A stretch of DNA of 50,454 nucleotides from Candidatus Gottesmanbacteria bacterium RBG_16_52_11 (GCA_001779095.1 MFJD01000004.1:116876-167329); one strand, 5' to 3'. Positions 6,299 to 35,215 are shown, counted from the stretch's first letter. Program-made: numbers and translations. Notes: generated by a model from the sequence alone, not told the origin.

Positions 6299-6345
6299 GC
6301 TCCCATTATACTTGAAGGGCGCATTCAGGAGATTTTGTAATTCCT

Positions 6346-15132: not shown

Positions 15133-15164
15133 AAAATACACTACCGCGAAACGATTGGGTGAAA

Positions 15165-15195
15165 GATACGTGAAGGGTGCTTCACGTATCTTTTT
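15165..15195 (+). terminator. Rho-independent terminator
   Basis: A perfect 11-bp stem, gatacgtgaag (15165-15175) / cttcacgtatc (15180-15190), with a 4-nt loop, followed by TTTTT (15191-15195). Confidence 0.65.
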
Positions 15196-15331
15196 GGCCG
15201 TCTGGAGGCATCTCAGAGGCCCGAGACGTGCGAGCCCGTTGCAATCGTCTGTTTTTCCTAATAGTTTATGTCAAGGGCAGCGAAAGAGGTGCAGGGAGGA
15301 TTTTGGATTTTGGAAGAGTATAATACTTTTC

Positions 15332-16303
15332 ATGGTTTCGTATAGTAGTGTCATAACGGTTAATTTCCGAATCGGGGAGGATTTTTTCGACGTTTTCCGG
15401 GAAGGTGCAAACCTCTCCTCCGGCAATGTTTCCATCGCCTTGGATATTGATACACCGGTCGTTTCTCTGACACCTAAATCTTTAGAACAGGCCAAGGTCT
15501 CGGTGGTACGAGAATGGAAGCCGTGGACAATTGTTGTCAGCAATGAATGCGTGATGACATATGCGGGTCTTTTGGGAATCAGGAAGTACCGGAATGATAA
15601 GCCATTTGGTTTGGTCGTCTGCGACCAACATTTGGATATCTACGCATACGATTATTGCGGTACTGAGCTTAACAAGGCAACGGTGATCAGGAAATCGCTC
15701 GATGACGGATTGGTCGATCGGGTGGTATTTATCGGAACCAGGCCGTCTGAGGAAGCATGCTACCGGGAAACCGACTACCCGATTCCGGCGCATGACCGGC
15801 AGTACTCCGCACATATCCGGGAGGACCGGATACTATCGGGACATGAGGATAAAATATCCATTATCCCGGTATACCAGTTCGGTACGTTTTCCGAAGGCGC
15901 CATGAAAGCATTCTTCCTCCTTAGGGCGTTGGGGATAACCGATGTTGGGTTGATGGTGGATCTTGACAGTTTCGATTCGCGCCGGATTAGAGGCGTGGCG
16001 TATAATTCCGATTACTCCGCGGAAATCCAGGATTTTATTACCGAAAGAATCAGGGAGAAAAGCAAGCTGCCCGATTTGCCGGTTCTTAAGGAGATAATCG
16101 AATATCTCATGTTCATGGAAAGCGAGATTTCTCAACCGGGCATACCGCCTGATAATATTGGTCAGGAAATCAGTATCGTGAGGGATTTTTTGCGGTCTCA
16201 AGGCATGCGTCTGCTGTATAAAGGGATAACGGAGTACGAGCCAAGCCGTAAGGACAAAGCCACGAAGAGATTACTGGAACAAATCGTACGCGCACTTGTC
16301 TGA
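15332..16303 (+). CDS. Divergent arginase/ureohydrolase-fold protein
   Basis: The track ORF starts at 15155 but would read through the terminator at 15165-15195, so I prefer the ATG at 15332 (MVSYSS...), with TATAAT at 15319-15324. The motifs follow arginase-family order: VVCDQHLDIY (DxHxD), VVFIGTRP, LMVDLDSFDS (DxD) and ITEYEP (ExxP). The usual GGDHS position reads SNECV. Confidence 0.55.
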   Translation: MVSYSSVITVNFRIGEDFFDVFREGANLSSGNVSIALDIDTPVVSLTPKSLEQAKVSVVREWKPWTIVVSNECVMTYAGLLGIRKYRNDKPFGLVVCDQHLDIYAYDYCGTELNKATVIRKSLDDGLVDRVVFIGTRPSEEACYRETDYPIPAHDRQYSAHIREDRILSGHEDKISIIPVYQFGTFSEGAMKAFFLLRALGITDVGLMVDLDSFDSRRIRGVAYNSDYSAEIQDFITERIREKSKLPDLPVLKEIIEYLMFMESEISQPGIPPDNIGQEISIVRDFLRSQGMRLLYKGITEYEPSRKDKATKRLLEQIVRALV

Positions 16304-16497
16304 AACCGGAGCGAGAAGCGATTTTTAGCTTTGAGTCAAAAAGTCCGATCTGCCCCGTACCAAACTTACCCGTATCGCCATCACCCTCCTACGTTCGTGT
16401 TCGTTTCGAGGGCTACGTCCCCGCAAACGAAAACTCACTTCGGAGGATGTGGGAGAGTAAGCTGTTTTTCTGAAAACAGCAACTCTCCCATCAAAAA

Positions 16498-16550
16498 AGC
16501 ATCACTACCGCTAGCAGATTGGGTTTGGGCTACGAGTAGTAATGCTTTTT
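16498..16550 (+). terminator. Long imperfect hairpin plus T-run about 250 nt downstream of the 16303 stop
   Basis: agcatcactaccgctagc (16498-16515) pairs with gctacgagtagtaatgct (16529-16546) at 14 of 18 positions, followed by TTTT (16547-16550). A perfect 16-bp composite hairpin precedes it at 16451-16489. Confidence 0.4.
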
Positions 16551-16716
16551 GTTATTGATATCGTTCATCTTGAGCAGAGATTAGAACGATATCTAAAGGA
16601 AAACGATAACAGGGATATCTGCGCATTGTCAAATCAGAAAGTGAAGCTCGGTAATTGAATTTAGATTGTTTTCACGATACTCTTTTCACCAAAAATCGCT
16701 TCCGGCCGAGCAATAA

Positions 16717-16745
16717 TTGACATTCATTATAGCCAGCGGTAAAAT
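16717..16745 (+). promoter_or_regulatory. Orphan sigma70-like promoter with no downstream ORF
   Basis: TTGACA (16717-16722), an exact 17-nt spacer, then TAAAAT (16740-16745). Downstream plus-strand sequence has only very short ORFs until it runs antisense into the 3' end of the gene at 17296. Confidence 0.4.
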
Positions 16746-17005
16746 CAGTGCAATTAAGAGACGGATGTGATTTGTTGAACAGGTAATATATCCGGGAGTT
16801 GGGAAAGAGCACGGAGCAATTACCGCAATCAGTCTGTTTGACAGACCCTACAGGCAATAGAGTATATTAGACTGTATTAAATAACATCAGGCCAGATGAC
16901 CGGAAATCAGAAAAAATTAATCGGACGATTGGGACGGGAAAATTGAGATAAAGTCGAATTTTCCGGCAATCCGGGTAACAGATAATGCGTACCTGAGACG
17001 GTTTT

Positions 17006-17185
17006 TATGGGGGGTTGATTGTTGGGCCACGTAAATCCCGACTAAGTCGGGACACGTGGCAGGCAGGCTTGAATCGTTAAACGTACACGATGTATGTTCT
17101 GTATGGGGGGTTGATTGTTGGGCAGGCGATCAACTCCCCATAGAGGGCATAGTGTGCGTTTTTACGTTCCGATCAACCCCGTATA
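17006..17185. repeat. Nested inverted-repeat structure built from four copies of a GGGG(G/A)GTTGAT(C) motif
   Basis: Direct 22-nt copies of tatggggggttgattgttgggc lie at 17006-17027 and 17102-17123. Inverted partners are gatcaactccccata (17128-17142) and gatcaaccccgtata (17171-17185). The inner pair gives a 14-bp stem with one G-U. Confidence 0.5.
17027..17059 (+). repeat. Conserved small hairpin element, copy H1 (ACGTAAATCCC...GGGACACGT family)
   Basis: ccacgtaaatcccgac taa gtcgggacacgtgg forms two 6-bp stems separated by an asymmetric internal loop (AAAT opposite AC). The same architecture occurs three times at 35015-35204. Confidence 0.55.
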
Positions 17186-17295
17186 AACCTTACCTTCTCC
17201 CGACGCTTACAGCTTCGCACCCGCCTGTCGGCGAGGCAGGTCGCAGGGGCGGTTCTACGGGGCAGGCTCCCCATAAAGTCTCCCGGTACGCTTTT

Positions 17296-18591
17296 TTATC
17301 GGTCCTGAAGTATTGTCTGAGCTGCAGTCTGTCCCAGTTCCACCGCGTAATTGGTACCGCGGTCCCACGGTACGATGGAGTCCATGTTAGCCAGATACAT
17401 GCCCGGCAAAGGCGTTTTCAGATGCGGGATGCGGGCCGAGTATCCGGTCTGATGCACCGGCTGGGCAAAAGGCCCGGTAAACATGAAAGACCGGAATATT
17501 CCGGCCGGACTGAATTTCTTTTCCAGACGTCGGATGAACGGGGTATAAAGCTCGATTACCTGCGTCTTATCCATTTTCAGATACGCATGGTCGGGCGGCA
17601 GGTAATTGCCGAAATATGTCAGGTGCCGGTTGCCGTAGTGGCTTCTGTCCATGAAATTCGTATGGGCGACGGCTGCCAGAAACGGGAACGAGCGGTCATT
17701 AATATTGAGCCAATAGACCGAATTGAGGATTGGTTCAGCCGTTTCCAGTATTAATAGATGTGCATGCAGGTGGGGAATCGTTTCCGCCGGCCGGAGGTAC
17801 GCCGGGGGCATCCCCGGGACGATTTTTGCAACCAGCGGAGTCGGTATCGTCAGAAGCACCCTGTCCGCACGGACCGGGGTACCGCTGCCGGTAACAGAGA
17901 AACCAGGCCGGGCACCTGGCCCGCTTTCCGGCTCAATCCGGGTGACGGCTGAGCCGGTCCGGATGATGCCGCCGGATGATCGGATCAGGTCCGCCATTTT
18001 TACAACCAGCGTCTGAAAGCCGCCGCGGATATATCCCAGCCTGGTCGTCCGTTTCCTGATCCGTGCCCAGAGCCAGGACGCGGCCACTGTCGGCGCCAGC
18101 TCACCGAATTTACCGTATAAGAGCGGCTGCCAGATCGTCCCCCAGGCCAGGCTGCCGCCCAGGGTGCGGAAGACGGTTTCCGCAGTATATCGTTCCAGAG
18201 GTCGCCAGAAAGGATTGAGTTTAGCTCCCGCCAGTACGAGTCCGGTTCTGATCCGGTCGGTGAAGGGGAGTACCGGAAACCTGAGAAGGCTCAGGGGCGA
18301 ATCCAGCTGATACATACGGCCGTTGACATAGGTGGCAGTCACGGGACGCCTGATGATCAGATCCCTTTCCATTCCGACTGACCCGGCCAGGGCAATCAGC
18401 GATGCGTCGTTGGTGAAAAAATGGTGGTAGGCAAATTCGAGGTGCCAGTCCCAGCCGGCTTCCCGGAATCCGTGAGCCAATCCGCCCAGTACCGGTTCCT
18501 TTTCCAGAAGCGTGACTTGGTGGCCGGCTGAGATAAGCCGTAAAGCTGCTGATAGCCCGGTAAAGCCCCCTCCGATAACCGCGATCTTCAT
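17296..18591 (-). CDS. NAD(P)/FAD-dependent oxidoreductase (amine oxidase / phytoene desaturase-like Rossmann flavoenzyme)
   Basis: I prefer the ATG at 18591 (MKIAVIGGGFTGLSAALRLISAGHQVTLLEKEPVLGGLA), a classic dinucleotide-binding motif at the N-terminus. The track ORF extends 66 codons further upstream. Confidence 0.8.
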   Translation of the reverse strand: MKIAVIGGGFTGLSAALRLISAGHQVTLLEKEPVLGGLAHGFREAGWDWHLEFAYHHFFTNDASLIALAGSVGMERDLIIRRPVTATYVNGRMYQLDSPLSLLRFPVLPFTDRIRTGLVLAGAKLNPFWRPLERYTAETVFRTLGGSLAWGTIWQPLLYGKFGELAPTVAASWLWARIRKRTTRLGYIRGGFQTLVVKMADLIRSSGGIIRTGSAVTRIEPESGPGARPGFSVTGSGTPVRADRVLLTIPTPLVAKIVPGMPPAYLRPAETIPHLHAHLLILETAEPILNSVYWLNINDRSFPFLAAVAHTNFMDRSHYGNRHLTYFGNYLPPDHAYLKMDKTQVIELYTPFIRRLEKKFSPAGIFRSFMFTGPFAQPVHQTGYSARIPHLKTPLPGMYLANMDSIVPWDRGTNYAVELGQTAAQTILQDR

Positions 18592-18697
18592 TCCCGTATT
18601 GTAACAAAGTTGAGCCTGCCTGGTTCCGTATATGCCGCCATGATATACTGTGGGAAATTTCCGCCCACCGCAGGGCAGCGTACTTATACCGAACCGT

Positions 18698-19630
18698 ATG
18701 CATACATTCTCCGCAGTCGTAACGAGTTTACGTCCCCGGCAGTGGATCAAGAATTTAGGGACATTTACACCGCTTTTCTTTTCCGGCAACCTTTTTAATC
18801 CGGCGGGTTTTTACTGGACCGCAGTCGCGACAGTGGCGTTCTGTGCCGTGGCATCTTCAGGATACCTGTTTAACGACGTCATTGATGTCAGGTATGACCG
18901 GACTCATCCGTTTAAGAAATTCAGGGCTATCGCCAGCGGCGCGATTCCCGTCCCGAGCGCCATGGCTCTGGCATTGGCGCTGGCTTTGACCGGACTGACG
19001 GCGGCATACTGGGTCAACTGGCAGGTATTCGTCGCGGCACTTGCTTTCCTGATCATCCGTTATACCAACACTCTGGTCCTCAGGTATGTAGCGATAATCG
19101 ATATCCTGACTATTGCCATCGGTTATGTGATCAGGGTGTATGCGGGGGTGGCGGCCTCCGGATATTATATCTCGATCTGGCTGTCGTTGACGGTGATGTC
19201 GGTTTCACTGCTTCTGGCTATCGGCAAGCACCGGGCAGATCTCACCTTTGCCATGAAGAAACGCGGTAAAGCCGGTTCCTTTATATCTGAAAAAGTAAAG
19301 TACTCAGAACAGATGATTAATACCTATACGGCAATGTTTGCTACTTCGACTATTATCACCTATTCTTACTATTCTTTCCTGACCGAGCTGGCGGGTTTGG
19401 GATTTTTCGTCGGCAGGGACACGTGGTATGCCAGTTCCGTTTTTGACCGGAAATGGATGATGGCTACCATACCCTTCGTCATATACGGCGTGATGCGGTA
19501 CCTTCAGCTCATCTACGAAGAAGGGGAAGGGACGCTTGAGAAAATTATCACTACCGATATCCCGCTGATGATCACCTTCGGCGGCTGGTCGCTGGTATCG
19601 TTTCTGGTCATTTACGGAATCGGAGGCTGA
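18698..19630 (+). CDS. UbiA-family prenyltransferase, decaprenyl-phosphate phosphoribosyltransferase-like
   Basis: LRPRQWIKN, then NDVIDVRYDRTHPFKKFRAIASG (an NDxxDxxxD motif), and about 8 TM helices. I prefer the ATG at 18698 (MHTFSAVV...). Confidence 0.75.
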   Translation: MHTFSAVVTSLRPRQWIKNLGTFTPLFFSGNLFNPAGFYWTAVATVAFCAVASSGYLFNDVIDVRYDRTHPFKKFRAIASGAIPVPSAMALALALALTGLTAAYWVNWQVFVAALAFLIIRYTNTLVLRYVAIIDILTIAIGYVIRVYAGVAASGYYISIWLSLTVMSVSLLLAIGKHRADLTFAMKKRGKAGSFISEKVKYSEQMINTYTAMFATSTIITYSYYSFLTELAGLGFFVGRDTWYASSVFDRKWMMATIPFVIYGVMRYLQLIYEEGEGTLEKIITTDIPLMITFGGWSLVSFLVIYGIGG

Positions 19631-20214
19631 TGAGCAAGTCCCGACCGGTAGTGAAAATCGGCATCGACTTTGACGGAGTCCTGGCATATAACCCTTTCCG
19701 GATTATCCGGGCACCCATTACTTATGTTAAACGCCGGTTTTTCGGGATCCGGAAGCTCCGGTTTTATGTCCCGAATACCCCGTTTGAGCGTTTTGTGTGG
19801 GCGCTGCTTCACGAGTCATCGGTGCTGCCGGCGCGGGGAATCCGACTGCTACCGGAATTGGCGGCCCGTCCTGACGTAAAGCTGTACCTGGTGACCGCAC
19901 GGTTCGGGTATCTCCAGCCGTCGCTTTACCGCTGGCTCGACCGTCACGGGGTGCGTGACCTGTTTGCCGACATCCTCATTAACCGCCGGGACGAGCAGCC
20001 GCATGAGCATAAGCTCCAGACGATCAACCGGTTAGGGCTGAATTACTATATTGAAGACAACTGGGATATCGTTGAGTATCTGCAGGGCAGGACCGATACC
20101 CGGGTGATGTGGATTTACAATATTGCCGACCGGCATTACGGGTACCCGGACAAATACCCGTTCCTTGAGGCTGCGCTAGGCGAAGTCCGGCATAACCTGC
20201 CGGAGCGGAAGTGA
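19630..20214 (+). CDS. HAD-superfamily hydrolase/phosphatase
   Basis: The N-terminal nucleophile motif is KIGIDFDGVLAYNP (DxDG). The start overlaps the UbiA stop (TGATG: stop 19628-19630, start 19630-19632). Confidence 0.6.
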   Translation: MSKSRPVVKIGIDFDGVLAYNPFRIIRAPITYVKRRFFGIRKLRFYVPNTPFERFVWALLHESSVLPARGIRLLPELAARPDVKLYLVTARFGYLQPSLYRWLDRHGVRDLFADILINRRDEQPHEHKLQTINRLGLNYYIEDNWDIVEYLQGRTDTRVMWIYNIADRHYGYPDKYPFLEAALGEVRHNLPERK

Positions 20215-20218
20215 TTTC

Positions 20219-21352
20219 ATGGAGAGAACTAAACCCCGCGTACTATTTCTTCTGACATATTACCGGCCACACTGGACCGGACTGACCCAGTATGCGGCGC
20301 GACTGGCCGAAGGTTTAGCCGGATCGGGATACGATGTATCGGTAGTGACAACCAGGCATGACGGAAGTCTGCCGGGCCGGGAAATGATCCGCGGAGTACG
20401 GATTCTGCGAAGCCCGGTGCTATTCCGTTTTTCCCGGACACTGATTTCTCCGGCAATGTTTCCGGTATTCGTCAGGGAGTTGTTAAACTGCGACAGGGTG
20501 ATCATATTCCTGCCGTTTGCGGAGGTGGCGCTGGCGGCAATAATTGCCAGAGGATTCGGAAAACCGGTGTATCTGGTGCATAACGGCGATCTCAGGCTAC
20601 CAGCCGGCGTGATTAACCGGATACTTGAGTCAACTTATACTGTAAGTACGCTGATCGGGATGTTTGCTTCCCGGGCTATCGTCGGCCAGTCGAAAGACTA
20701 TAGTGAAAATTCTGCAGTGCTATCGAAAGCCGGAACTAAACTGCGGATCATTCCGCCCCTGTTTCCACCTGATTATGTATCAGCACCCCGAAATCAAAAA
20801 CCGGTGAGACGCAAGGCATATACCGTCGGATTTGCCGGAAGATTCGTTGAGGAAAAGGGATTTGACAGGTTGATCCGGGCAGCACCCCTGGTCTGGGAAA
20901 AGCTGCCGGATACCCGCTTCGTCTACGCCGGAGAGACGAAAATGTCATACGAACAATTTTTTGAAAGATTTGAGCAGGATATTGCCGGACTTGGTAACCG
21001 GATGACCATGTCAGGCAGACTGGATGAGGCGGGAATGCGCGGTTTTTACCGAACACTGGATGTGCTGGTGGTTCCGTCCCGGAGCGACTGCTTCCCGTCA
21101 GTACTGGTTGAGGGAATGCTCTCCGGGGTTCCGGCCGTGGTTGCCGATATACCGGGGGCCAGAAGTCCGGTCCGTCAAACCGGAATGGGGGAGACAGTCG
21201 ACGCTGCCGATCCGGCGGCGCTGGCCGGGGCAATCATCAGGGTCCTGACGCATAAAAGCGTGTATACTCGGAACTGGAAGAAAGTTACCGGGGAATTTTC
21301 TTATGAGCGGACTCTCCGCGAATACCGATCGCTTCTTGAGCCGGGAGATTGA
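20219..21352 (+). CDS. Glycosyltransferase family 4 (GT-B fold)
   Basis: VLFLLTYYRPHWTGLTQYAARLAEGLAGSGYDVSVVT at the N-terminus, and LDVLVVPSRSDCFPSVLVEGMLSGVPAVVADIPG (EX7E region) at the C-terminus. Confidence 0.85.
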   Translation: MERTKPRVLFLLTYYRPHWTGLTQYAARLAEGLAGSGYDVSVVTTRHDGSLPGREMIRGVRILRSPVLFRFSRTLISPAMFPVFVRELLNCDRVIIFLPFAEVALAAIIARGFGKPVYLVHNGDLRLPAGVINRILESTYTVSTLIGMFASRAIVGQSKDYSENSAVLSKAGTKLRIIPPLFPPDYVSAPRNQKPVRRKAYTVGFAGRFVEEKGFDRLIRAAPLVWEKLPDTRFVYAGETKMSYEQFFERFEQDIAGLGNRMTMSGRLDEAGMRGFYRTLDVLVVPSRSDCFPSVLVEGMLSGVPAVVADIPGARSPVRQTGMGETVDAADPAALAGAIIRVLTHKSVYTRNWKKVTGEFSYERTLREYRSLLEPGD

Positions 21353-22175
21353 TCCGGCTTTTGCCAGGCGGGCAGCTCTGGTCCTGAATAATCTTGAGGT
21401 AGCTGGAGGAGATAAAATTCTGGATATCGGCTGCGGTAGGGGATTTTATGTCGTCGCTGCCGCGTCTGCCTGGCCGCAGGCCCGGATTACCGGGATTGAC
21501 ACCGTCAGGAAATACCTGGAAATTGCCGGAAATGCCATCCGGCACCTGAAACTCGGCAATGCTCAGGTCCGTCATGCTGACGGCATGAGGTTGCCCTTTA
21601 CGTCGGATTCATTTGACCGGATCATCTGCTCCGAGGTGCTAGAGCATGTTGCATCGGACACCCGACTGGTTTCGGAAATGCTGCGGGTTCTGAAACCCGG
21701 CGGCATAGCCCTTATTACAGTTCCGTCAGCCCATTATCCGTTCCTCTGGGATCCGCTGAATTTCTGCCTTGAAGCATTTACCGGGCAGCATATACCGTCC
21801 CGCATCTGGTGGCTGGCCGGGATCTGGGCCGATCATGTCCGGCTCTACCGCAGTCATGATCTGACGGCGCTTCTGTCAGCGGCGGGTTTTTCGGTCGACA
21901 AAATCTGGTACTCCACCCGGTTCTGTTTCCCGTTCAGTCATTTCCTGCTATACGGGATCGGAAAAAATCTGGTAGAGCGCGGTATGGTCGGATCCGGTTT
22001 CGACCGGTTCAGCATTCAGAGCCCGCCGACAGCACCGGCGCGGATAGCCCGGGCGGTACTGCGGATAGCGGACTGCTTCAATGACACTACGGAAATGCTA
22101 AGCGAACCAAGCCGTTTCGTTAATCTGGTATGTAAAGTCAGAAAGCCCCGGACAAAAAAGCAGCTTCCGTCATGA
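21303..22175 (+). CDS. Class I SAM-dependent methyltransferase
   Basis: Motif I is ILDIGCGRGFY. Also present are FDRIICSEVLEHV and LKPGGIALITVP. It overlaps the preceding gene by 50 nt. Confidence 0.85.
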   Translation: MSGLSANTDRFLSREIDPAFARRAALVLNNLEVAGGDKILDIGCGRGFYVVAAASAWPQARITGIDTVRKYLEIAGNAIRHLKLGNAQVRHADGMRLPFTSDSFDRIICSEVLEHVASDTRLVSEMLRVLKPGGIALITVPSAHYPFLWDPLNFCLEAFTGQHIPSRIWWLAGIWADHVRLYRSHDLTALLSAAGFSVDKIWYSTRFCFPFSHFLLYGIGKNLVERGMVGSGFDRFSIQSPPTAPARIARAVLRIADCFNDTTEMLSEPSRFVNLVCKVRKPRTKKQLPS

Positions 22176-23728
22176 AAAAATCCTTTCTTCAGCTGTCTGC
22201 CGTGATTGGCATCTATCTGATTGCGGCACTTTATAAACTCAGTGAAATACCGGGCGAATGGTACGGTGATATCACCGCCCTTCAAAGCCAGGTCAGCGAA
22301 ATCCTGAAGGGTTCATTCCCGCTCGGATTCCTACTGGGATCAGGCCCCTTGTATCCTTATTTCGCGGCCGTTTTCGTAAAATTTCTTGGCGTTTCCTATA
22401 TGACATATAAAGTCGCGACGGTCTCTGCCGGCGCTGTCGGACTGACATTGACATACGCATACGCCCGGGAATTAGGCGGCAGAAGGCTGGCGGTGGTATC
22501 CGGAATTCTCCTTTCTGTATCCAGCTGGTACCTGGCGTGGGCCCGGCTGGGAAGTACGCCGGTAATGGCCACTCCGGTCCTGTCTGCCGGCATGATGCTT
22601 TGCCTTCTCAGGTACCACCGCAGCGGCCGGGTCATCTGGCTCGGAACCGGAGCCTTACTGTCGGGGTTGGGGCTTTTCACTTATCCCGGAGCTTATTTCT
22701 ATCCGCTGACTTACCTTGCCGCCTTTGTAATACTCCGCCTGAGAACTCTGATTAACATCCGGACGGCAAAGGAACTGACAGTCATCGCACTTTGTCTGAT
22801 ACCCCTGATTACCGGTTTTACCAGAATTGTTCTGTCACAGCCGGCGCAGTTTCTGGATAAACAGGGTTACCTCGGCGCAAAACTATTTCCGGCGCTATCG
22901 CAGGATTCCAACGTTGTTGCTGCTAAACTGGCTGCAAATGCAGCAAAAACATGGGGCAGTTTCCTTTTCACGGGGGACATAATTTTCCGGACAAATGTGC
23001 CGGGATCACCGCACCTGGATCCGGTCAGCGGGGTGCTTTTTTTTACCGGAATACTGATACTTCTGATAAGCCGAAACCAGAGGAAATTGGTGCCGTTTCT
23101 GATCATTCCGCTGTTATTAATCCCGGTACCGTCCATGTCGCCGGCGCTTCCTGACGGAGAAGTACCCAGCATCACGCGGACTTACGGTATGCTGCCGTTC
23201 GTTGTCATCACTGCAGGCATCGGTATTCTGGCTGCAGGGGAATGGGTAAGGAAAAGAACCGGAAAATACCATTCTCAGATCGTAATCGGGATTATCGTGA
23301 TTACAGCTGCGGTTTTTAACCTCAATAAATACTTTTCCCAATATCCTAAAAGTCTTCCGAACCGCAACTCACCTTATGGCAGGATCATTGCCGACAATAT
23401 CGATACGCTGCAGCCGGAGATGCCTGTTTACATGCCGGGCTGTTGTTGGGGGGAATGGGGGCAGCCGGAAGTGCACGGCGTTTATTATGTTCTGAAAAAT
23501 AAAACCGGTAGGGAAAACATTATTCTGGACCAATACCAGCTTACCTGCCGGGAAATCGACACGGCAAACGGCGCCCTGATTATTCTGGATCCCGGCGATA
23601 AGCTGAAAATAGGCCGGTTCACCTACTGTTTCCCCGGTGCCGCTGGTCAACTTCATACCGATAGGTACGGGCAAAAGGTATTTTATTCGCTTTTGGTCCC
23701 GCCGGGCATCCGGGGTATCGACCGCTAG
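22172..23728 (+). CDS. GT-C-like polytopic membrane glycosyltransferase (GT39/ArnT-like)
   Basis: 518 aa. ATGA start/stop overlap with the methyltransferase gene. The first loop reads SEIPGEWYGDIT, followed by about 11 TM helices and a C-terminal soluble domain. Confidence 0.65.
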   Translation: MKKSFLQLSAVIGIYLIAALYKLSEIPGEWYGDITALQSQVSEILKGSFPLGFLLGSGPLYPYFAAVFVKFLGVSYMTYKVATVSAGAVGLTLTYAYARELGGRRLAVVSGILLSVSSWYLAWARLGSTPVMATPVLSAGMMLCLLRYHRSGRVIWLGTGALLSGLGLFTYPGAYFYPLTYLAAFVILRLRTLINIRTAKELTVIALCLIPLITGFTRIVLSQPAQFLDKQGYLGAKLFPALSQDSNVVAAKLAANAAKTWGSFLFTGDIIFRTNVPGSPHLDPVSGVLFFTGILILLISRNQRKLVPFLIIPLLLIPVPSMSPALPDGEVPSITRTYGMLPFVVITAGIGILAAGEWVRKRTGKYHSQIVIGIIVITAAVFNLNKYFSQYPKSLPNRNSPYGRIIADNIDTLQPEMPVYMPGCCWGEWGQPEVHGVYYVLKNKTGRENIILDQYQLTCREIDTANGALIILDPGDKLKIGRFTYCFPGAAGQLHTDRYGQKVFYSLLVPPGIRGIDR

Positions 23729-23742
23729 ATCCGTGAACCGGT

Positions 23743-25524
23743 TCAGATATTTCCGGTGATCCGGCCGAAGATTTCCTGTCCGGTCAGCCGCTCCTGGTTA
23801 TGAAGAATTATCACCTTCGGATGATCATAGACAGTCCAGGTTTCATCCATATAGTCGTCGACGAAGGAAACGCCCGATTGCGGGCAGTCATCGAAACGAC
23901 TGACAATTTCCCCGTACGTACCAAACGGCAACCGGATGCAGACTGACGCTGCCGGCAATGCCAGATTGGGACGGGATGTGAACTGGGCAGCGATTTCATA
24001 CCCGAGACTTCCGTTGATCAGTTTTTCATAATACGTCCGGCTTTGGGGAAATCTGACCGGCAGGCGGGTCAGGGAACCGTAGGCACGGTTGCTTGACAGG
24101 GTAACGAAATCAGCTTCAGCAAGAACTGTGGCGACGGATTTCCATTTCTCCACGTTGTCCGGACCGAATACCGGCAATTCCCGGATTCTGTAATCCTCCT
24201 TTAATTTACCGGTCAGGGAAATCGGCAGGTAGTCATCCCAGTGTTCGCCGGCTATGACGGATCCTTTGGGAGCCGCGGCATAAATCCAGCGGGAAGCTGC
24301 TATCCGGGTGTGGGGTTTCAGATAGATGCCGGTAACCGCCACCGGCCAGACAATGAGCGCTGCCATAACCAGTGCCGTAACGGATGCGCCGCGGCGGATC
24401 CGACCGGAAAAAACAGAGAGCGCAACACCGGAGATAACCGCGATCAGAGGATACAGGACATAGAAGTACCGGATTGCTTTTGCAGTCTGTACACCGTGAT
24501 AGATAAAAACGGTAACCAGCGCTGCCGAAATGACCACGAATACTGATTTTCTGATCCGGCTGAGATTACGGATCAGGAAAATGCCGGCCCAGATTGAAAG
24601 GAGCGCATGTGGCAGCCCCAGTCCGACAAAAACCAGATTCATAAGCGGGTAAATGATCGGGATCGTGCCATCCCATTGTAGGGCAGGCGGAAACATCGCA
24701 CCCGGCGTATCGAAAGATTTCAATTCCTGCCAGTTTTTCAGTACTTTCGGATTCAGGGTCAATGAACCGGAGGAAAAAAGATACGGATAGGCAATCCGTA
24801 CGGTCACCGCCAGCAGCAGTGTAAACCCGAGAACGGAGAGGACAGACCTGACTACGTTCCGGTGCCGGATAAACCTGATCAGGAAAGAAACCGCTACGGC
24901 CGGTAAAACCAGCGCGGCGGAAATTTTACTGGCTACAGCCAGACCGAATGCCACCGCCGACGGATTTTCCCGGCGGGAAACGATAAGTGTCAGTCCGAGT
25001 ACCGCAAACAGCGTCAGGTAAGGATCGACGGTGAAAAAATGCGATATCTGGATCGGCAGGGCCATAGTGGCATAAACAAATGCGGCCATAATGCCAGCCT
25101 GCGGTAAACCGGACATGAGTTTTGCCAGCCGGTATACCAGAAGCAGGACCACCAGATCACAGACCGCCGACATCGCCCGGCCGGTGAGCGTCAGGTTCAT
25201 GTAGTCTCCGGATTTAAGAAGCTCTGCTACGGCTTTCACCATTATGACCGGTAAAGTCCCGTAAACATAGAATCCGCTGCCGATATTATGCGGATTCAGA
25301 CGGGACCGGGCGGTATCGAAGTATTCCGGTACCGATGCCGGCCATTTCATGGAAGTGGCCACCATGGTCAGAAAGCGCTCATCCGGGTGCAGGTGTGCGC
25401 CGGCATCCCAGTTGATCCCGGAGAACCGGAAGACTGCGGCCAGAATCAGGACCGTAATCAGCTGGGCCGGAACGGATATGCGCAGCCAAAACGTCCATAT
25501 TTTCCCGTGCGGTGTTTTATCCAT
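23743..25524 (-). CDS. GT-C-like polytopic membrane glycosyltransferase (GT39/PMT_2-like)
   Basis: 593 aa. The first loop is INWDAGAHLHPDERFLTMV. There are many TM helices and a C-terminal soluble domain. A 3-nt gap separates it from the upstream gene. Confidence 0.7.
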   Translation of the reverse strand: MDKTPHGKIWTFWLRISVPAQLITVLILAAVFRFSGINWDAGAHLHPDERFLTMVATSMKWPASVPEYFDTARSRLNPHNIGSGFYVYGTLPVIMVKAVAELLKSGDYMNLTLTGRAMSAVCDLVVLLLVYRLAKLMSGLPQAGIMAAFVYATMALPIQISHFFTVDPYLTLFAVLGLTLIVSRRENPSAVAFGLAVASKISAALVLPAVAVSFLIRFIRHRNVVRSVLSVLGFTLLLAVTVRIAYPYLFSSGSLTLNPKVLKNWQELKSFDTPGAMFPPALQWDGTIPIIYPLMNLVFVGLGLPHALLSIWAGIFLIRNLSRIRKSVFVVISAALVTVFIYHGVQTAKAIRYFYVLYPLIAVISGVALSVFSGRIRRGASVTALVMAALIVWPVAVTGIYLKPHTRIAASRWIYAAAPKGSVIAGEHWDDYLPISLTGKLKEDYRIRELPVFGPDNVEKWKSVATVLAEADFVTLSSNRAYGSLTRLPVRFPQSRTYYEKLINGSLGYEIAAQFTSRPNLALPAASVCIRLPFGTYGEIVSRFDDCPQSGVSFVDDYMDETWTVYDHPKVIILHNQERLTGQEIFGRITGNI

Positions 25525-25527
25525 ATT

Positions 25528-27201
25528 TCAGAGCCCGGGACAGATATCGCTGACCCGGTAAATACTGACGCCGGTATCTGAATTGCGGTAAGACGGGCGG
25601 AAGCTGCCTTTCCAGAGCGACCAGTTAACCTTGATAAATCCTTCAGGCTTGTCGCTGAGTTCTACCAGGTCAATGGATTGCCCGCTTAGTATACGGCAGG
25701 CAGTATTCCCGTCGGGCGCATTATAGATGGCGTTCATTATTTCCTCCCGGGCATCCTTGTCATAGCCGTAGGACCAGGTGAAGTAAGCGTATCCGGAGTA
25801 AATATCCCGTCCGACCAGTGAGGCCGGATGGTAGAACCAGTTGCTGTTAAGAACCAGGTCGTCAGGAGCGCTGTGATTGAGAAAGTATACGGCTTCCGGA
25901 ACCACGGGATAGTCGTACAGGCCGCCGATCCGGTCGTTGGCTATAACGGAAATGTCGATGATTCCCGAAACCGTAACCAGGAAGATCAGGATTACGGTGA
26001 GAGTTTTGGGCAGTAATCTGCCGAAACCCCGGCCCAGCCGCCAAAGCCGGTACAGGGCCAGGGCGGAATAAGCCGAACCCATGATCACGACGAAATTGAA
26101 CAGCTTGTGGTTGTTGATCATATCCGGTGATAGCCTGAAAACATTAGGCAGTGCAAACAGCAACAGAAGCGGCAGCGCCAGCAATTTCAGCCGGCGGGAC
26201 GCCAGCAGGAATCCGGCCGGCATCAGAATCAGATGGAAGCCCAGGTTGTGCCACCAGTACCACAGGAATTTCCCCGCAGTTAACGGCTTTTCGATCAGGT
26301 ACCCCGGATCGATGCCGATTGCCGCCGGATCGGCGGTGATGTTGCGGTACACCAGAAAGGCGGGTACCAGGACGACGAAAGCGGAAAGCACCGGGAAACG
26401 CGCCGGCGGATGCAGGAAAAACAGGAAAAACAGGTAAGTTACCGCGATCAGAAGTGCCGCCTGATTAAGGAAAAACAGCGATCCGGCCAGGACTCCGACA
26501 CCGAGACCGGAGAGAAACCGGATTCTCAGGGGCTGTTTCGGATCATGGATTAACAGAATATAAATCACCGCCAGGCATACCGCAAAAGACAAAGCCAGAT
26601 GCCGCTGGTTCGTGTAAATATTGAAGTTCCAGAAAGCACTGACAGGGCCTCCGTCCCAGGGCCCGAAAGCCGGAAACCGGTCAGCCGAGAGGATTTCCAG
26701 CGGCGTTGCCGGCGACAGAGGATGAGCCCGGAAGAATTTCAGGAAAGCCAGCGATCCGTTGAAAAGGAAAAAAAGTACGGTCAGCAAAGCTACACCGGTA
26801 CTGGCAAACAACCGCCGGATCAGAAGAAACAGGAACACCAGAAGCCCGGACAGTCCCAGGGCACTGGGTATATTGACGGCCCAGTCGAACCGTAATCCGG
26901 CACGTTCCAGAACTCCCGCGATCATGTAGAAAAGGAAATGGTACCGGATTTTTTCTCCCGGAAACAGCGGGGACTGGGGAGCCTGCCAATGGGTAATCCG
27001 CCACCAGTTGCTGCCTATGGAGAACGACCGGACCAGCGGCAGGTGGGCACCGAAATCACTCCAGAGCGTTGATGCGATGCGGATGGTGTGCGTCTCCGGA
27101 TCGTATCCGAGGGTATGCAGCATCAGCCAGAAGGAAAAGACCAGAAATCCGGTAAACAGCAGTAATGTTCCGATCTGACGGCGTGGGAGTGCTGTCAACA
27201 T
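25528..27201 (-). CDS. Polytopic membrane protein, unclassified GT-C-like
   Basis: 557 aa. The first loop is TLWSDFGAHLPLVRSFSIGSNW. There are about 12 TM helices and a C-terminal soluble domain. Confidence 0.6.
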   Translation of the reverse strand: MLTALPRRQIGTLLLFTGFLVFSFWLMLHTLGYDPETHTIRIASTLWSDFGAHLPLVRSFSIGSNWWRITHWQAPQSPLFPGEKIRYHFLFYMIAGVLERAGLRFDWAVNIPSALGLSGLLVFLFLLIRRLFASTGVALLTVLFFLFNGSLAFLKFFRAHPLSPATPLEILSADRFPAFGPWDGGPVSAFWNFNIYTNQRHLALSFAVCLAVIYILLIHDPKQPLRIRFLSGLGVGVLAGSLFFLNQAALLIAVTYLFFLFFLHPPARFPVLSAFVVLVPAFLVYRNITADPAAIGIDPGYLIEKPLTAGKFLWYWWHNLGFHLILMPAGFLLASRRLKLLALPLLLLFALPNVFRLSPDMINNHKLFNFVVIMGSAYSALALYRLWRLGRGFGRLLPKTLTVILIFLVTVSGIIDISVIANDRIGGLYDYPVVPEAVYFLNHSAPDDLVLNSNWFYHPASLVGRDIYSGYAYFTWSYGYDKDAREEIMNAIYNAPDGNTACRILSGQSIDLVELSDKPEGFIKVNWSLWKGSFRPSYRNSDTGVSIYRVSDICPGL

Positions 27202-27237: not shown

Positions 27238-28926
27238 TTAATCAGTGGCTGCTCCGGCAACGCTGCCCAGATCCTCGGACCAAACTACGACAACGGATTT
27301 ATGTCCGGATGCGGTGTCCAGCGGAAACGGGCCTTCAATCTGCCAGCGGGGGTAATTATTATCAGATGCAATTTTCCCGAAACACGGATTATCCGTTGTC
27401 ATCAGGACTACTGAGCCGGAATAATCACAGTCCATGGCAGCAGCTGTTTCTGCCGTAAAACCCGACGCATAACCGTCCCAATAATATACCGCAGCATCTC
27501 CGAAATTGTCGGTTTTCACCAGTTGGGTAATATCAGCCGTCAGTACGAATTTCTGAGGCAGGATGCGCAGAAGCCGGGGGGACAGGTCACGGACCGCCAT
27601 TGCCAGTTCGGACTGGCCGGTTGTCTTCTGATCCATATATAACCGGTACTGACGGATAATACCTGAAACAATAAGGGGAATCAGCAACGCAGCCAAAATG
27701 TGCCGCTTGACCGGCAGATGACGGACAGCCGCCGTAAAAAGCAGGACGAAAAACGGTATCGAGACGGTCGACCGCTTCAGCATATAATCGACAGCCGCTC
27801 CGCCGGCATACCCCTGCATCATCATCCCGGCCATAAGCGTTCCCCAGATCCAGACCGCGCAGACAGCCCCCATCCAGCCGTTGCCGCCGACAAGGGAATA
27901 AACCAGGATGCCCAGAAATATCCATCCGAAGAATCCAACAGTCCAGGGAACACCGTACGGAGTGATCAGAAAATGGTTTAAAACGTTACCGGAGGTGACA
28001 AGTACCGTCTGAATTGCCGGTAAAAGCGGTTCACCGTCGCCGGCAATGCGGATATCAGTCCGATATCTCAGGCTGAGCAGTAATCCGGCCAAAAAAAGTA
28101 CAATAAACGCCATCGGAACCAAAGCCGAAGGTTGCCCCCGGATTCCCCGGCGGAAAGCATCAGTTAACAGGTACACGGTCAGAAGTCCGCATAAAGCCAG
28201 TCCGGGCGTGTACATGAAGGCCAGTGTGTACGCCAGCATGCCGATGAGTGCCGGATAAATTATATTTTTTGTTGTCTCCGACCGGAGAACCAGTCCTGCT
28301 CCCAGGAGTGCCAGCGCGGAAGGATATGCTGCCTGTTCGAAATTGAATACCACCCACCCCAATACCGGAAATAACCAGGGAGTCAGAACGGCCGATGCGG
28401 TCAGGATATCGCGGGCCGGATGATCCGCGAGCCACCGGTACAGGCCGTAGGCAAATACCGGCAGGCCGATCAGGAAGTAGACCGCGTTACCCGCCTGGAG
28501 GGAAAAAACGCTGCGTCCGAACAGCAGGGTAGGCAGTGCCGGGATAAAGTACTGCTTGGCCGGGTAACCATAGAGGCAGGTGCCGGCGTATGCGTTCCCT
28601 TTGCCTTTAAGCAGTGATACGGCGCAGGCGATCTCATGCGTCGATTCGAAACTCATAAACTGCGCCCGGGTACTCAGGTACAGTATTGTTGCCAGTGAGA
28701 TAAGTACGGCAACCGCGGAAAGAACTGCTTTCCCGCGCCCGGCATCACAAGTCAAACGGATCAGTAACATGCCTGACGATACTGCGAAAACCAGCCAAGC
28801 ACATACCCAGGCTAGTACGCCGACCGTGCCGTATGCCGGGCTTCCGATGACGGCAATGTCGGCTGCTACCATTAAGGCAGTAAGACTTACCAGGCCGGCA
28901 GGCAATAGACGTGTCAACCGTTTCAT
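27238..28926 (-). CDS. Polytopic membrane protein, unclassified GT-C-like
   Basis: The track ORF begins at a TTG at 28944; I prefer the ATG at 28926 (MKRLTRLL...). It has about 13 TM helices and a C-terminal soluble domain. Confidence 0.6.
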   Translation of the reverse strand: MKRLTRLLPAGLVSLTALMVAADIAVIGSPAYGTVGVLAWVCAWLVFAVSSGMLLIRLTCDAGRGKAVLSAVAVLISLATILYLSTRAQFMSFESTHEIACAVSLLKGKGNAYAGTCLYGYPAKQYFIPALPTLLFGRSVFSLQAGNAVYFLIGLPVFAYGLYRWLADHPARDILTASAVLTPWLFPVLGWVVFNFEQAAYPSALALLGAGLVLRSETTKNIIYPALIGMLAYTLAFMYTPGLALCGLLTVYLLTDAFRRGIRGQPSALVPMAFIVLFLAGLLLSLRYRTDIRIAGDGEPLLPAIQTVLVTSGNVLNHFLITPYGVPWTVGFFGWIFLGILVYSLVGGNGWMGAVCAVWIWGTLMAGMMMQGYAGGAAVDYMLKRSTVSIPFFVLLFTAAVRHLPVKRHILAALLIPLIVSGIIRQYRLYMDQKTTGQSELAMAVRDLSPRLLRILPQKFVLTADITQLVKTDNFGDAAVYYWDGYASGFTAETAAAMDCDYSGSVVLMTTDNPCFGKIASDNNYPRWQIEGPFPLDTASGHKSVVVVWSEDLGSVAGAATD

Positions 28927-28995
28927 GTGATTTGCCGCAATCAATTATCAGAAACATTGTAGCACCGGGGATACCCCGGCTATAATGCTAACCAT

Positions 28996-34237: not shown

Positions 34238-34966
34238 ATGCCCAGATACGCCGACTATTTAATAGAGCGTATTAGGTATTTAAGAATTAAAGGGAATTCG
34301 TATGGTGAAATCCAAAAGGCAGTGAGGATTCGTATTCCAAAGAGTTCTTTAAGCTATATTTGTCGGAATGTTCGGTTACCAGATGAATATATTGAACGTA
34401 TTCAGAAGTTAAGCAGTGCGGGTTTATCCAAAGGCAGACTAATTGCAGTAGAAACAAACCGGATCAAACGGGAAAAATTCTTCCGGGATTTAGTACAACA
34501 GTATGCTCCAACTGCTAAATTAACTCATTCTGTAGATATTGGGAAAATTGCCTTATCCATGCTTTGCCTGGGCGAAGCTTCGAAATATAATCCGAAAACG
34601 CGCAAAAGTTTTAGCTTGGGGAATTCAGATCCAAGAATTATTGTGATTTTTATCCGTCTGTTACGACAATGCTTTCCATTCGATATAAATAAAATGCGGG
34701 CCACAGTACAGTGCCGGGCTGACCAGGACCCGGTGGAGCTGAAAAGATTTTGGATTAAGTCAACCGGTATACCAGAACACCTATTTTATAAACCATTAAT
34801 CGATAATCGCACAATTGGAAAACCAACGAAGAAGCATAACTATATGGGGGTTCTACGGATAGATTATTTTGACACAAAGGTTCAGCTGGAATTGGAGTGT
34901 TTAGCGGATTTGATTTATAATCAACTACGTTTAAATGAATCAGATGGGCCGGTGGCGCAACGGTAG
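34238..34966 (+). CDS. AT-rich ORF: N-terminal HTH plus possible single-motif LAGLIDADG-type homing endonuclease domain
   Basis: 242 aa. An HTH-like stretch (GNSYGEIQKAVRIRIPKSSLSYI), a degenerate LAGLIDADG-like stretch (IALSMLCLGEASKYN), and then FSLGNSDPRIIVIFIRLLRQCFPF. The last 21 nt, including the stop codon, lie inside the tRNA-Ala gene. Confidence 0.4.
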   Translation: MPRYADYLIERIRYLRIKGNSYGEIQKAVRIRIPKSSLSYICRNVRLPDEYIERIQKLSSAGLSKGRLIAVETNRIKREKFFRDLVQQYAPTAKLTHSVDIGKIALSMLCLGEASKYNPKTRKSFSLGNSDPRIIVIFIRLLRQCFPFDINKMRATVQCRADQDPVELKRFWIKSTGIPEHLFYKPLIDNRTIGKPTKKHNYMGVLRIDYFDTKVQLELECLADLIYNQLRLNESDGPVAQR

Positions 34967-35017
34967 CGCGCCTCGATGGCATCGAGGAGGCTGAGAGTTC
35001 GAATCTCTTCCGGTCCA
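34946..35017 (+). tRNA. tRNA-Ala (anticodon GGC)
   Basis: Folded by hand. Acceptor stem GGGCCGG/CCGGTCC with the G3:U70 Ala identity pair; D stem GCGC/GCGC; anticodon stem CCTCG/CGAGG with loop ATGGCAT; T arm GAGAG-TTCGAAT-CTCTT; discriminator A. CCA is not encoded (CCG follows). Confidence 0.85.
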
Positions 35018-35057
35018 CCGCGTCAAATCCCACATACGGGACACGTGGTTAATTCGG

Positions 35058-35128
35058 GGGCCTATAGGTAAACGGTATACCGCAGTCTTCGCATGGCTGA
35101 GTTCCGAGTTCGATTCTCGGTAGGTCCA
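35058..35128 (+). tRNA. tRNA-Ala (anticodon CGC)
   Basis: Folded by hand. Acceptor stem GGGCCTA/TAGGTCC with G3:U70; D stem GGTA/TACC; anticodon stem CAGTC/GGCTG with loop TTCGCAT; T arm CCGAG-TTCGATT-CTCGG; discriminator A. CCA is not encoded. Confidence 0.85.
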
Positions 35129-35215
35129 CAACGTAAATCCCTTCGGCAAGCTCGGGACACGTTGCAAGCCAACGTAAATCCCTTCGGCAAGCTCGGGACA
35201 CATTGCAAGCCAACG
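35129..35215 (+). repeat. 41-bp tandem repeat (2.1 copies), each unit containing one ACGTAAATCCC...GGGACACGT hairpin
   Basis: Units at 35129-35169 and 35170-35210 differ at one position (acgttg versus acattg). A partial third unit, caacg, lies at 35211-35215. The array sits between tRNA-Ala and the 3' end of the convergent transporter gene. Confidence 0.8.

Follow-up and report, generated by a model that had tools for sequence, protein, structure and literature searches.

A UbiA-type protein of the phosphoribosyltransferase branch in a predicted envelope-glycosylation locus conserved among Microgenomates

Can a bacterium outside the actinobacteria assemble a lipid-linked pentose donor with enzymes that are not orthologous to those of mycobacteria? 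The question is raised by a gene cluster (positions 17296 to 23728) in a DNA stretch of 50,454 nt from Candidatus Gottesmanbacteria bacterium RBG_16_52_11 (GCA_001779095.1 MFJD01000004.1:116876-167329). The whole stretch is referred to as the window, and all coordinates are positions counted from its first letter. The cluster encodes a UbiA-family protein, a HAD-superfamily protein, a GT4 glycosyltransferase, a methyltransferase and a membrane glycosyltransferase of the GT-C type, with a flavin-dependent oxidoreductase (flavoenzyme) transcribed divergently (Table 1). The original prediction had taken it for a candidate pathway to polyprenyl-phosphate-arabinose. As judged from gene content and conservation, the region is part of a conserved Microgenomates envelope-glycosylation locus that is uncharacterised so far. 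The explanation that accounts best for the observations, held with confidence slightly better than even, is that this glycosylation locus has a HAD-GT4 core and that a UbiA gene was placed before the HAD gene in one sub-lineage.

The tightly packed gene cluster is real. The genes, their overlaps, the short gap, the divergent spacer and the motifs, as originally described, were all recovered from the list of open reading frames (ORFs) and by direct reading. The stop codon of UbiA and the start codon of HAD overlap as TGATG (19628-19632), HAD and GT4 are separated by 4 nt (20215-20218), GT4 and the methyltransferase overlap by 50 nt (21303-21352), and the methyltransferase and the GT-C gene share ATGA (22172-22175). 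The translations contain RPRQWIKN and NDVIDVRYDRTHPFKKFRAIASG in the UbiA protein and DFDGVL in the HAD protein. A Pfam scan of the cluster returned Amino_oxidase, UbiA, Glycos_transf_1 with Glyco_transf_4, Methyltransf_11/25 and PMT_2. On an independent contig (L001), the UbiA protein of which is 67% identical, the gene order is identical (S1/RadA/PIN, flavoenzyme, UbiA, HAD, GT4, methyltransferase, GT-C, three large membrane proteins, DUF2298) and the overlaps are alike; the ORFs are therefore genuine genes and not chance products. No sigma-70-like promoter was seen by a consensus scan inside the spacer between the flavoenzyme and UbiA genes, and a terminator scan was no more informative.

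The UbiA protein matched the Pfam UbiA family (E=1.9e-15). Among the NCBIfam models, three for decaprenyl-phosphate phosphoribosyltransferases matched best (E=3.6e-46, 3.9e-42 and 2e-34), and a model for HAD-UbiA fusions, NF006088 (482 residues), matched with E=2.2e-42. Quinone, heme, EboC and archaeal-lipid UbiA models gave E values of 1e-8 or weaker. The profile comparison against quinone, heme and archaeal-lipid families that had been suggested earlier was thus won by the phosphoribosyltransferase models, which beat the other UbiA subfamilies by about 38 orders of magnitude. The sole match in the PDB was Rv3806c (8j8j, E=9.5e-25), with 30% identity over the aligned part. The residues of Rv3806c that bind Mg and the pyrophosphate and 5-phosphate of phosphoribosyl pyrophosphate (PRPP) are known from its structure and from mutagenesis, and its phosphoribose-binding sites are not shared by the UbiA superfamily at large (PMC10994848). 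Nine of the 10 substrate-binding residues of this set are kept in the window protein: R12, K18, Y56, N59 and D63 correspond to R22, K28, Y70, N73 and D77 of Rv3806c, and K73, R76, R129 and Y143 to K87, R90, K143 and Y157. Conservation was assessed in an alignment of 16 sequences, comprising the window protein, 14 relatives from the candidate phyla radiation (CPR) and Rv3806c. N59, D60, D63 and D67 of the first Asp-rich motif (N-D-x-x-D-x-x-x-D) are invariant there, as are R22, K28, Y70, N73, D77, K87 and R90 (Rv3806c numbering); Y157 is retained in the window protein and most CPR relatives, and the K143 site is occupied by R or K. On the strength of the profiles, the structural match and the binding residues, the UbiA protein is assigned to the PRPP-dependent polyprenyl-phosphate 5-phosphoribosyltransferase (Rv3806c/PPPRS) branch, in agreement with the original prediction. 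A lipid-linked pentofuranose donor of the ribose type is very probably made and consumed by the locus, for decoration of the envelope. The relatives show, at the level of predicted proteins, that Microgenomates widely encode a PRPP-dependent lipid-linked pentose synthase.

The gene neighbourhood of UbiA in relatives was surveyed in 80 UbiA-centred metagenomic loci. A WecA-like gene was located directly upstream of UbiA in 55 of the 56 testable loci; HAD is the next gene after UbiA in 2 of 53, and the flavoenzyme occurs in 1 of 80. In Gottesmanbacteria relatives (45-48% identity), the UbiA gene overlaps the end of a Glycos_transf_4 (WecA/MraY-family) gene, preceded by GT2 genes, a weak PMT_2-like protein and a small membrane protein, and sometimes followed by a PMT_2 GT-C gene. 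The WecA-UbiA arrangement looks like a separate, widely conserved wall-glycan operon. In most Microgenomates, the overlap between UbiA and the WecA/MraY-type gene (PF00953) amounts to about 55 nt (L002 8973-10939; L003 8973-10939; L087-L166), and the small membrane protein upstream has 119-130 aa and belongs to no family. Mycobacterial arabinogalactan is built on decaprenyl-pyrophosphate-N-acetylglucosamine, and the coupling of a WecA-like initiating transferase to the UbiA gene in most CPR relatives recalls this logic. In a neighbour-joining tree, all HAD-linked UbiA genes, that of the window included, formed a single long-branched clade nested among the WecA-linked ones. The simplest reading is that UbiA was moved or duplicated once into the HAD-GT4 locus. 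The arrangement of the window recurs in about 13 further loci, which belong to one clade.

The HAD protein matched no model in Pfam or NCBIfam. Its predicted structure (predicted local distance difference test score, pLDDT, of 91) shows a confident HAD fold. The Foldseek comparison that had been envisaged for this protein was run and gave many matches to HAD sugar-phosphatases, among them YniC, CbbY and AlnB with TM-scores of 0.55-0.61; AlnB is a ribose-5-phosphate-adduct phosphatase. The HAD catalytic motifs (DxD, Ser/Thr, Lys and acidic motif IV) are in place: D13xD15, K128 and E142-D143-N144-x-D146 do not vary among 28 relatives, and at motif II the family has T, S or G. The family consists of 231 clusters at 90% identity, all of about 190 residues, and was seen solely in Microgenomates/Patescibacteria; named relatives of the window proteins come from Candidatus Gottesmanbacteria, Amesbacteria, Woesebacteria, Roizmanbacteria and the 'Patescibacteria group'.

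Relatives of the HAD protein were found in 208 species genomes, and the window proteins were mapped on 80 loci out of these. In 66 of 75 testable loci the next gene after HAD is GT4; the gene immediately before HAD is UbiA in 10 of 68. When 1.8 billion representative proteins were searched exhaustively with the HAD profile, 225 relatives came up, several of them 550-600 residues long. In all seven full-length proteins of this kind that were scanned (at least seven exist), an N-terminal HAD domain is fused to a C-terminal GT4 domain, apparently an undescribed bifunctional architecture; two truncated long proteins start in the same way, and UbiA was absent from all long HAD-family proteins checked in this search. 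Because of the GT4 adjacency and the fusions, none of which involves UbiA, the conserved partner of HAD across these sequences is GT4, not UbiA, and HAD would have evolved as a GT4 partner. Fusion or adjacency to a phosphoribosyltransferase is not a family-wide trait. By fold and motifs, HAD is a phosphatase-like protein; its role as a substitute for the mycobacterial PAP2 phosphatase, proposed in the original prediction, is not backed by the comparison with related genomes and is at best secondary. The UbiA-HAD-oxidoreductase association proposed at the same time is kept within the HAD-linked sub-clade and is not conserved at the level of the families. The possibility that HAD is a phosphoribose 5-phosphatase of the PRP type was considered and rejected: none of 28 family members matched NF006088 at E values up to 1, and the Foldseek matches are generic HAD sugar-phosphatases.

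The GT4 protein matched Glycos_transf_1 / Glyco_trans_1_4 (E about 1e-25) and Glyco_transf_4 in Pfam, and what it matched in the PDB are C-terminal domains of a generic GT4/GT5 kind, from glycogen synthase, sucrose-phosphate synthase (6kih), PimA and MshA. Synthase/phosphatase pairs are known from GT4 sucrose-phosphate synthase with SPP and from trehalose-6-phosphate synthase with OtsB. Coupling of a glycosyltransferase to a HAD protein, sometimes by fusion, is common to the sucrose-phosphate synthase/SPP type and the GT4-HAD pair of the window. The domain order of the fusions in relatives, HAD first and GT4 second, is unlike that of the sucrose-phosphate synthase type, and the HAD-GT4 pair is set among GT-C membrane enzymes, not among compatible-solute genes.

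The composition of the wider locus was determined from 38 HAD loci flanked on either side by 9 kb or more (complete loci). GT4 was present in 37 of these, a PMT-type membrane protein (TM593) in 37, a DUF2298 protein in 31, a polytopic membrane protein (TM557) in 24, the flavoenzyme in 15, a PMT_2 GT-C in 14, the methyltransferase in 10 and UbiA in 9. The core of the locus would therefore be the HAD-GT4 pair, TM593, TM557 and DUF2298, often accompanied by a flavoenzyme resembling protoporphyrinogen oxidase (PPOX) and phytoene desaturase. Literature searches for DUF2298, for PRK07233 and for a link between CPR and the phosphoribosyltransferase found nothing relevant. Many of the GTDB records that carry the locus (L009, L011-L013, L017, L020, L023, L024 and others) are metagenome-assembled genomes (TPA_asm) titled 'uncultured Gammaproteobacteria bacterium'; these titles look like a labelling error at the source.

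The flavoenzyme matched Amino_oxidase of Pfam over its full length (E=4e-33) and passed the cutoff of NF005560 (PRK07233; 387.6 bits against 252, residues 1-430 of 431), a model named merely 'hypothetical protein' by NCBI. Among named relatives, HpnE comes closest (84 bits across the full length), and no characterised member reaches 20% identity. The Rossmann GxGxxG motif stands at the very N-terminus, and the protein therefore has no signal peptide. With the predicted structure (pLDDT 93.8), the best Foldseek matches listed were PPOX (TM-score 0.79-0.80) and plant phytoene desaturase (0.85); the model also superposes on an uncharacterised Methanosarcina oxidoreductase (3ka7). Neither a VAO/DprE1-type nor a UGM/mutase-type structure was among the 50 Foldseek matches listed, and the sequence match to UGM was marginal (E=0.006) and limited to the N-terminal FAD-binding motif; a UGM-like or DprE1-like nature was rejected on these grounds. 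Enzymes with the PPOX/phytoene-desaturase/MAO fold act on lipophilic substrates, in which they dehydrogenate C-C or C-N bonds or bring about isomerisation or saturation; they are not known to oxidise secondary alcohols of sugars. The fold is shared with PPOX and plant phytoene desaturase, whereas the genomic context is glycan assembly instead of tetrapyrrole, carotenoid or hopanoid synthesis.

In relatives, the flavoenzyme gene is mostly found at the opposite end of the locus, where it follows TM593 and TM557 and diverges from DUF2298. It stands beside TM557 and DUF2298 in genomes without nearby UbiA or HAD, adjoining TM557 in L005, L006 and many other loci; in L005, L006 and the contig of P0135, the flavoenzyme/TM557 genes adjoin DUF2298. 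Among the complete loci with the flavoenzyme, 8 of 15 are without UbiA. The replacement of DprE1 by this protein, a central element of the original prediction, is unsupported: the fold belongs to the PPOX/phytoene-desaturase group, the gene travels with the GT-C genes whether UbiA is there or not, and no DprE2-like protein, short-chain dehydrogenase/reductase (SDR) or other candidate reductase was found among the scanned window proteins. On the contig of P0135, a called gene at locus positions 1-1561 has a product of 14,528 residues and is located a few kb from the flavoenzyme/DUF2298 locus.

Taken as a glycosylation locus with a HAD-GT4 core and an acquired UbiA gene, the region could function as follows. 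As suggested by its conserved catalytic residues, UbiA would transfer ribose-5-phosphate from PRPP to polyprenyl phosphate at the cytoplasmic face of the membrane. By analogy with known pathways, the 5-phosphate would be removed and the lipid flipped, and a GT-C enzyme would then use the polyprenyl-phosphate-ribofuranose and add the pentofuranose to an envelope glycan or protein, as in the three-component and mycobacterial arabinan systems. GT4, from its adjacency and fusion to HAD, would glycosylate a phosphorylated acceptor (or yield a phosphorylated intermediate) that HAD would dephosphorylate; in the UbiA-HAD sub-lineage, HAD may also dephosphorylate the UbiA product. For the flavoenzyme, the best guess is that it acts on something lipophilic that the GT-C machinery uses, for example the polyprenyl carrier.

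Several observations weigh against this explanation. The UbiA protein does not reach the curated cutoffs for equivalogs (NF008978, 157.6 against 207; NF008977, 144.7 against 234; NF008976, 119.4 against 474) and is therefore a divergent member of its branch and not an equivalog by the NCBI criterion. Y138 of Rv3806c, which is Y in most CPR relatives, is replaced by N124 in the window protein; the Y138A mutant of Rv3806c retains 41% activity (PMC10994848). Of the window ORFs of at least 150 aa that were scanned, none encodes a flippase of the GtrA, SMR or MATE type, the intergenic gaps of the window contain no hydrophobic small ORF, and an MFS protein is the one transporter among the scanned ORFs. 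The TGATG overlap argues that HAD serves UbiA in this genome. Lastly, the flavoenzyme is enriched with UbiA in the complete loci (7/9 with UbiA against 8/29 without; Fisher p=0.016, shared ancestry ignored), and a functional link between UbiA, HAD and flavoenzyme may exist within this sub-lineage; the enrichment is weak evidence, because the UbiA-containing clusters form one clade.

One alternative is a split ribofuranose system, similar to the three-component type, in which HAD of this sub-lineage would be a dedicated 5-phosphatase for the UbiA product, the downstream PMT_2 GT-C would use polyprenyl-phosphate-ribofuranose without epimerisation, and GT4, methyltransferase and flavoenzyme would act on the acceptor glycan or elsewhere. 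In the Citrobacter youngae O1/O2 three-component system (ORF15-ORF14-ORF12), polyprenyl-phosphate-ribofuranose is produced from PRPP by ORF15, in which a HAD 'PRP' domain precedes the UbiA-type synthase; the HAD domain takes off the ribose 5-phosphate, a MATE protein is the predicted flippase, and transfer of the pentofuranose falls to a GT-C enzyme (Kelly et al. 2024, PMC11127046). Optional epimerases, either an SDR or homologues of DprE1/E2, alter the sugar in such systems, candidates for which were found in further bacterial species (PMC11127046). The first Asp-rich motif begins at N247 in ORF15 and at N59 in the window protein, an offset of 188 residues; the UbiA part of NF006088 also starts 188 positions in, and this model therefore very probably represents the ORF15 architecture.

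A UbiA-type enzyme with the N-D-x-x-D-x-x-x-D motif, predicted to load ribose-5-phosphate from PRPP onto polyprenyl phosphate, an adjacent or attached HAD-fold protein and a GT-C enzyme are common to both systems. HAD is fused to UbiA in the three-component system, whereas that of the window is separate, of another HAD family and partnered with GT4. The MATE/SMR/GtrA flippase has no counterpart in the window locus, so that synthase and GT-C are present and a dedicated flippase is not; neither the SDR nor the DprE1/E2 option for epimerisation was found in the window. The GT-C enzyme of the published system belongs to GT136, and those of the window are, by family match, of the PMT, PMT_2 or DUF2298 type. 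The split ribofuranose system gains from the published precedent, from the TGATG junction, from the UbiA-HAD order kept throughout the HAD-linked clade, from the presence of AlnB among the Foldseek matches of HAD, and from the finding that no other phosphatase was visible in the WecA-UbiA operons examined. It has to contend with a HAD family that is older than its association with UbiA, otherwise tied to GT4 and not of the PRP type by sequence profile, and with the missing flippase. It is regarded as possible and is put forward tentatively.

A further alternative concerns the flavoenzyme, which would tailor the lipid carrier by saturating or desaturating polyprenyl phosphate, giving for example a dolichol-like carrier suited to GT-C enzymes of the PMT, Agl23 and DUF2298 types. 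Archaeal and eukaryotic relatives of these GT-C enzymes use dolichyl-phosphate sugars, the best named relatives of the flavoenzyme (HpnE and, by structure, plant phytoene desaturase) act on isoprenoids, and the gene is conserved beside TM557 and DUF2298 irrespective of UbiA. CPR genomes are in general not known to have heme and carotenoid pathways, which also favours a function of this kind. The proposal is drawn from fold and context only, and a literature search turned up no polyprenol reductase in the phytoene-desaturase family; such a role, suggested by the structural model, is considered doubtful. A broader scheme, in which GT4 and HAD would act on the UbiA product (supplied elsewhere in trans by the WecA-UbiA operon) to give a lipid-linked glycosyl-ribose donor, and the flavoenzyme would modify the donor or carrier before the GT-C step, in a Microgenomates-wide pathway that would also take in TM557 and DUF2298 and have no characterised counterpart, is considered unlikely.

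The complete non-orthologous polyprenyl-phosphate-arabinose pathway of the original prediction, with HAD in place of PAP2, the flavoenzyme in place of DprE1 for epimerisation at C2, and GT-C enzymes as consumers, fares considerably worse. The first mycobacterial enzyme, Rv3806c, is homologous to the window UbiA, and GT-C enzymes are the presumed consumers in the window as well. However, the PAP2 phosphatase (Rv3807c), the VAO-type DprE1, DprE2 and the Emb/Aft GT-C enzymes (GT53/GT85) of the mycobacterial decaprenyl-phosphoarabinose pathway are all absent from the window, and DprE1 and the flavoenzyme have unrelated folds. The type of the UbiA protein, its translational coupling to HAD, the divergently adjacent flavoenzyme, the recurrence of the arrangement in the one clade, the enrichment of the flavoenzyme with UbiA and the ability of the ORF15 HAD domain to remove a ribose 5-phosphate would all agree with this pathway. 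They are outweighed by the PPOX/phytoene-desaturase/MAO fold of the flavoenzyme, by the lack of a VAO-fold DprE1 with an SDR-type DprE2 or of any other SDR reductase in the window, by the occurrence of the flavoenzyme without UbiA and its rarity in the UbiA-centred loci, by the fusion or adjacency of HAD to GT4 and not to UbiA, and by the absence of profile similarity between HAD and the HAD domain of the UbiA fusions. The pathway is judged very improbable. It is hardly credible that the UbiA protein is a prenyltransferase of the usual aromatic, quinone or heme kind with no part in glycan synthesis, as its membership of the Pfam UbiA family and its scores under the phosphoribosyltransferase equivalog cutoffs might suggest, given the far weaker E values of the quinone, heme and archaeal-lipid models (1e-8 at best, against 1e-46), the kept phosphoribose- and pyrophosphate-binding residues, of which the phosphoribose sites are not conserved superfamily-wide (PMC10994848), and the neighbouring WecA-like and GT-C genes.

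As in the original prediction, the cluster is embedded among GT-C or GT-C-like proteins (PMT, PMT_2, DUF2298). The last protein of the cluster matched PMT_2 (E=2e-9) and, under the cutoff, NCBIfam TIGR03663 (Agl23; E=8e-7). In the TM593 family, Pfam PMT (PF02366) was matched by 9 of 14 members (best E=1.4e-11) and PMT_2 by 7 of 14, the family profile matched yeast Pmt1 (6p25, E=8e-6) and ArnT, and D48-E49 is invariant in the loop after the first transmembrane segment; TM593 is classified by sequence as a PMT-type (GT39-like) GT-C. TM557 has about nine hydrophobic segments with S48-D49-F50 invariant after the first transmembrane segment, and its profile had no match in Pfam or the PDB; it is GT-C-like by layout alone. 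TM568, with about 10 hydrophobic segments and a GT-C-like layout, had no Pfam match and is weakly conserved (8/80 loci). The DUF2298 protein matched its Pfam family with E=3e-90.

The slot after GT4, taken up in the window by the methyltransferase and the PMT_2-type GT-C, carries varying sugar-modifying genes; relatives have an SDR epimerase/dehydratase, FkbM-type methyltransferases, a UDP-glucose dehydrogenase or a small GT2 there. A variable gene slot is typical of surface-glycan loci that differ between strains. In locus L010, an SDR gene directly follows UbiA-HAD-GT4 and could encode a pentose epimerase like ORF13 of C. youngae. The window is unusually rich in large polytopic membrane proteins, of which there are about a dozen; they include two YfhO-like proteins, two PMT_2 proteins, DUF2298 and several without a family, and in one a C-terminal NPCBM carbohydrate-binding domain follows about 11 hydrophobic segments. 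For a small genome, such a concentration of probable GT-C enzymes is out of the ordinary.

The window also encodes the housekeeping proteins S1, RadA, Rho and an M23 peptidase, and the locus is flanked by S1-RadA-PIN on one side and Rho on the other. On contig L001, a 140-aa EamA-type membrane protein is encoded between RadA and PIN, where the window has none; it is a possible small transporter or flippase for the locus. A region of about 1 kb upstream of the locus, bounded by a weak arginase-like ORF and the 3' end of the flavoenzyme gene, is without a convincing ORF or an Rfam or tRNA match. The Rfam and tRNA scans returned nothing but two tandem tRNA-Ala genes, 38 nt apart and well outside the locus.

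Table 1. Features of the locus, of the remaining window and of related loci (the latter with their own numbering).
Feature	Position	Strand	Remarks
Flavoenzyme ORF	17296-18789	-	From ORF list; MKIAVIGGG start at 18591, gene 17296-18591
Divergent spacer, flavoenzyme/UbiA	18592-18697		106 bp, read directly; CAT 18589-18591, ATG 18698-18700
UbiA ORF	18650-19630	+	From ORF list; ATG at 18698, gene 18698-19630
HAD	19630-20214	+	Stand-alone phosphatase-like protein, HAD superfamily
GT4	20219-21352	+	GT-B fold; normally retaining, nucleotide-sugar-dependent glycosyltransferase
Methyltransferase	21303-22175	+	Class I, S-adenosylmethionine-dependent; Pfam Methyltransf_11/25/31/23
GT-C (PMT_2 / Agl23-like)	22172-23728	+	Pfam PMT_2
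TM593, PMT-type GT-C	23743-25524	-	Core member of the locus
TM557, polytopic membrane protein	25528-27201	-	GT-C-like layout, no known family
TM568, polytopic membrane protein	27238-28944	-	No known family
DUF2298 membrane protein	28996-31314	+	Pfam DUF2298; core member of the locus
Large membrane proteins elsewhere in the window	2346-4736, 4733-8358, 39200-41797, 41902-43848, 45540-47297, 47347-49005
Arginase-like ORF (weak)	15155-16303
Upstream region without convincing ORF	16304-17295
tRNA-Ala genes	34946-35019, 35058-35129		Anticodons GGC and CGC
MFS protein	35241-36371
Variable slot, L010	11700-12704
Variable slot, L058	11712-13925
Variable slot, L015	11610-12958
Variable slot, L022	11498-12421, 17413-18144
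HAD-GT4 fusions			P0367, P0372, P0375, P0377, P0378, P0418, P0430

The replacement of the mycobacterial PAP2 phosphatase by a HAD phosphatase is not new, because the HAD-UbiA protein ORF15 has been published (PMC11127046). The description of the system as undescribed was overstated, since donors of the polyprenyl-phosphate-pentofuranose type derived from PRPP, HAD-type 5-phosphatases and GT-C enzymes in non-actinobacteria are all on record in the same work. The system of the window would be a variant of this lipid-linked pentofuranose type outside the actinobacteria, set in a locus with HAD-GT4, flavoenzyme, TM557 and DUF2298. Two attractive role assignments, those of HAD and of the flavoenzyme, were corrected before they entered annotation. 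CPR/Patescibacteria make up a large share of bacterial diversity, and the composition of their envelopes is almost unexplored. The findings predict that pentofuranose occurs in the envelope glycans of Microgenomates and that the HAD and GT4 proteins function as a unit. Should GT4 and HAD indeed act on the UbiA product and the flavoenzyme tailor the donor or carrier, bacteria that are unable to make their own lipids would have a new route for the synthesis and tailoring of lipid-linked sugar donors.

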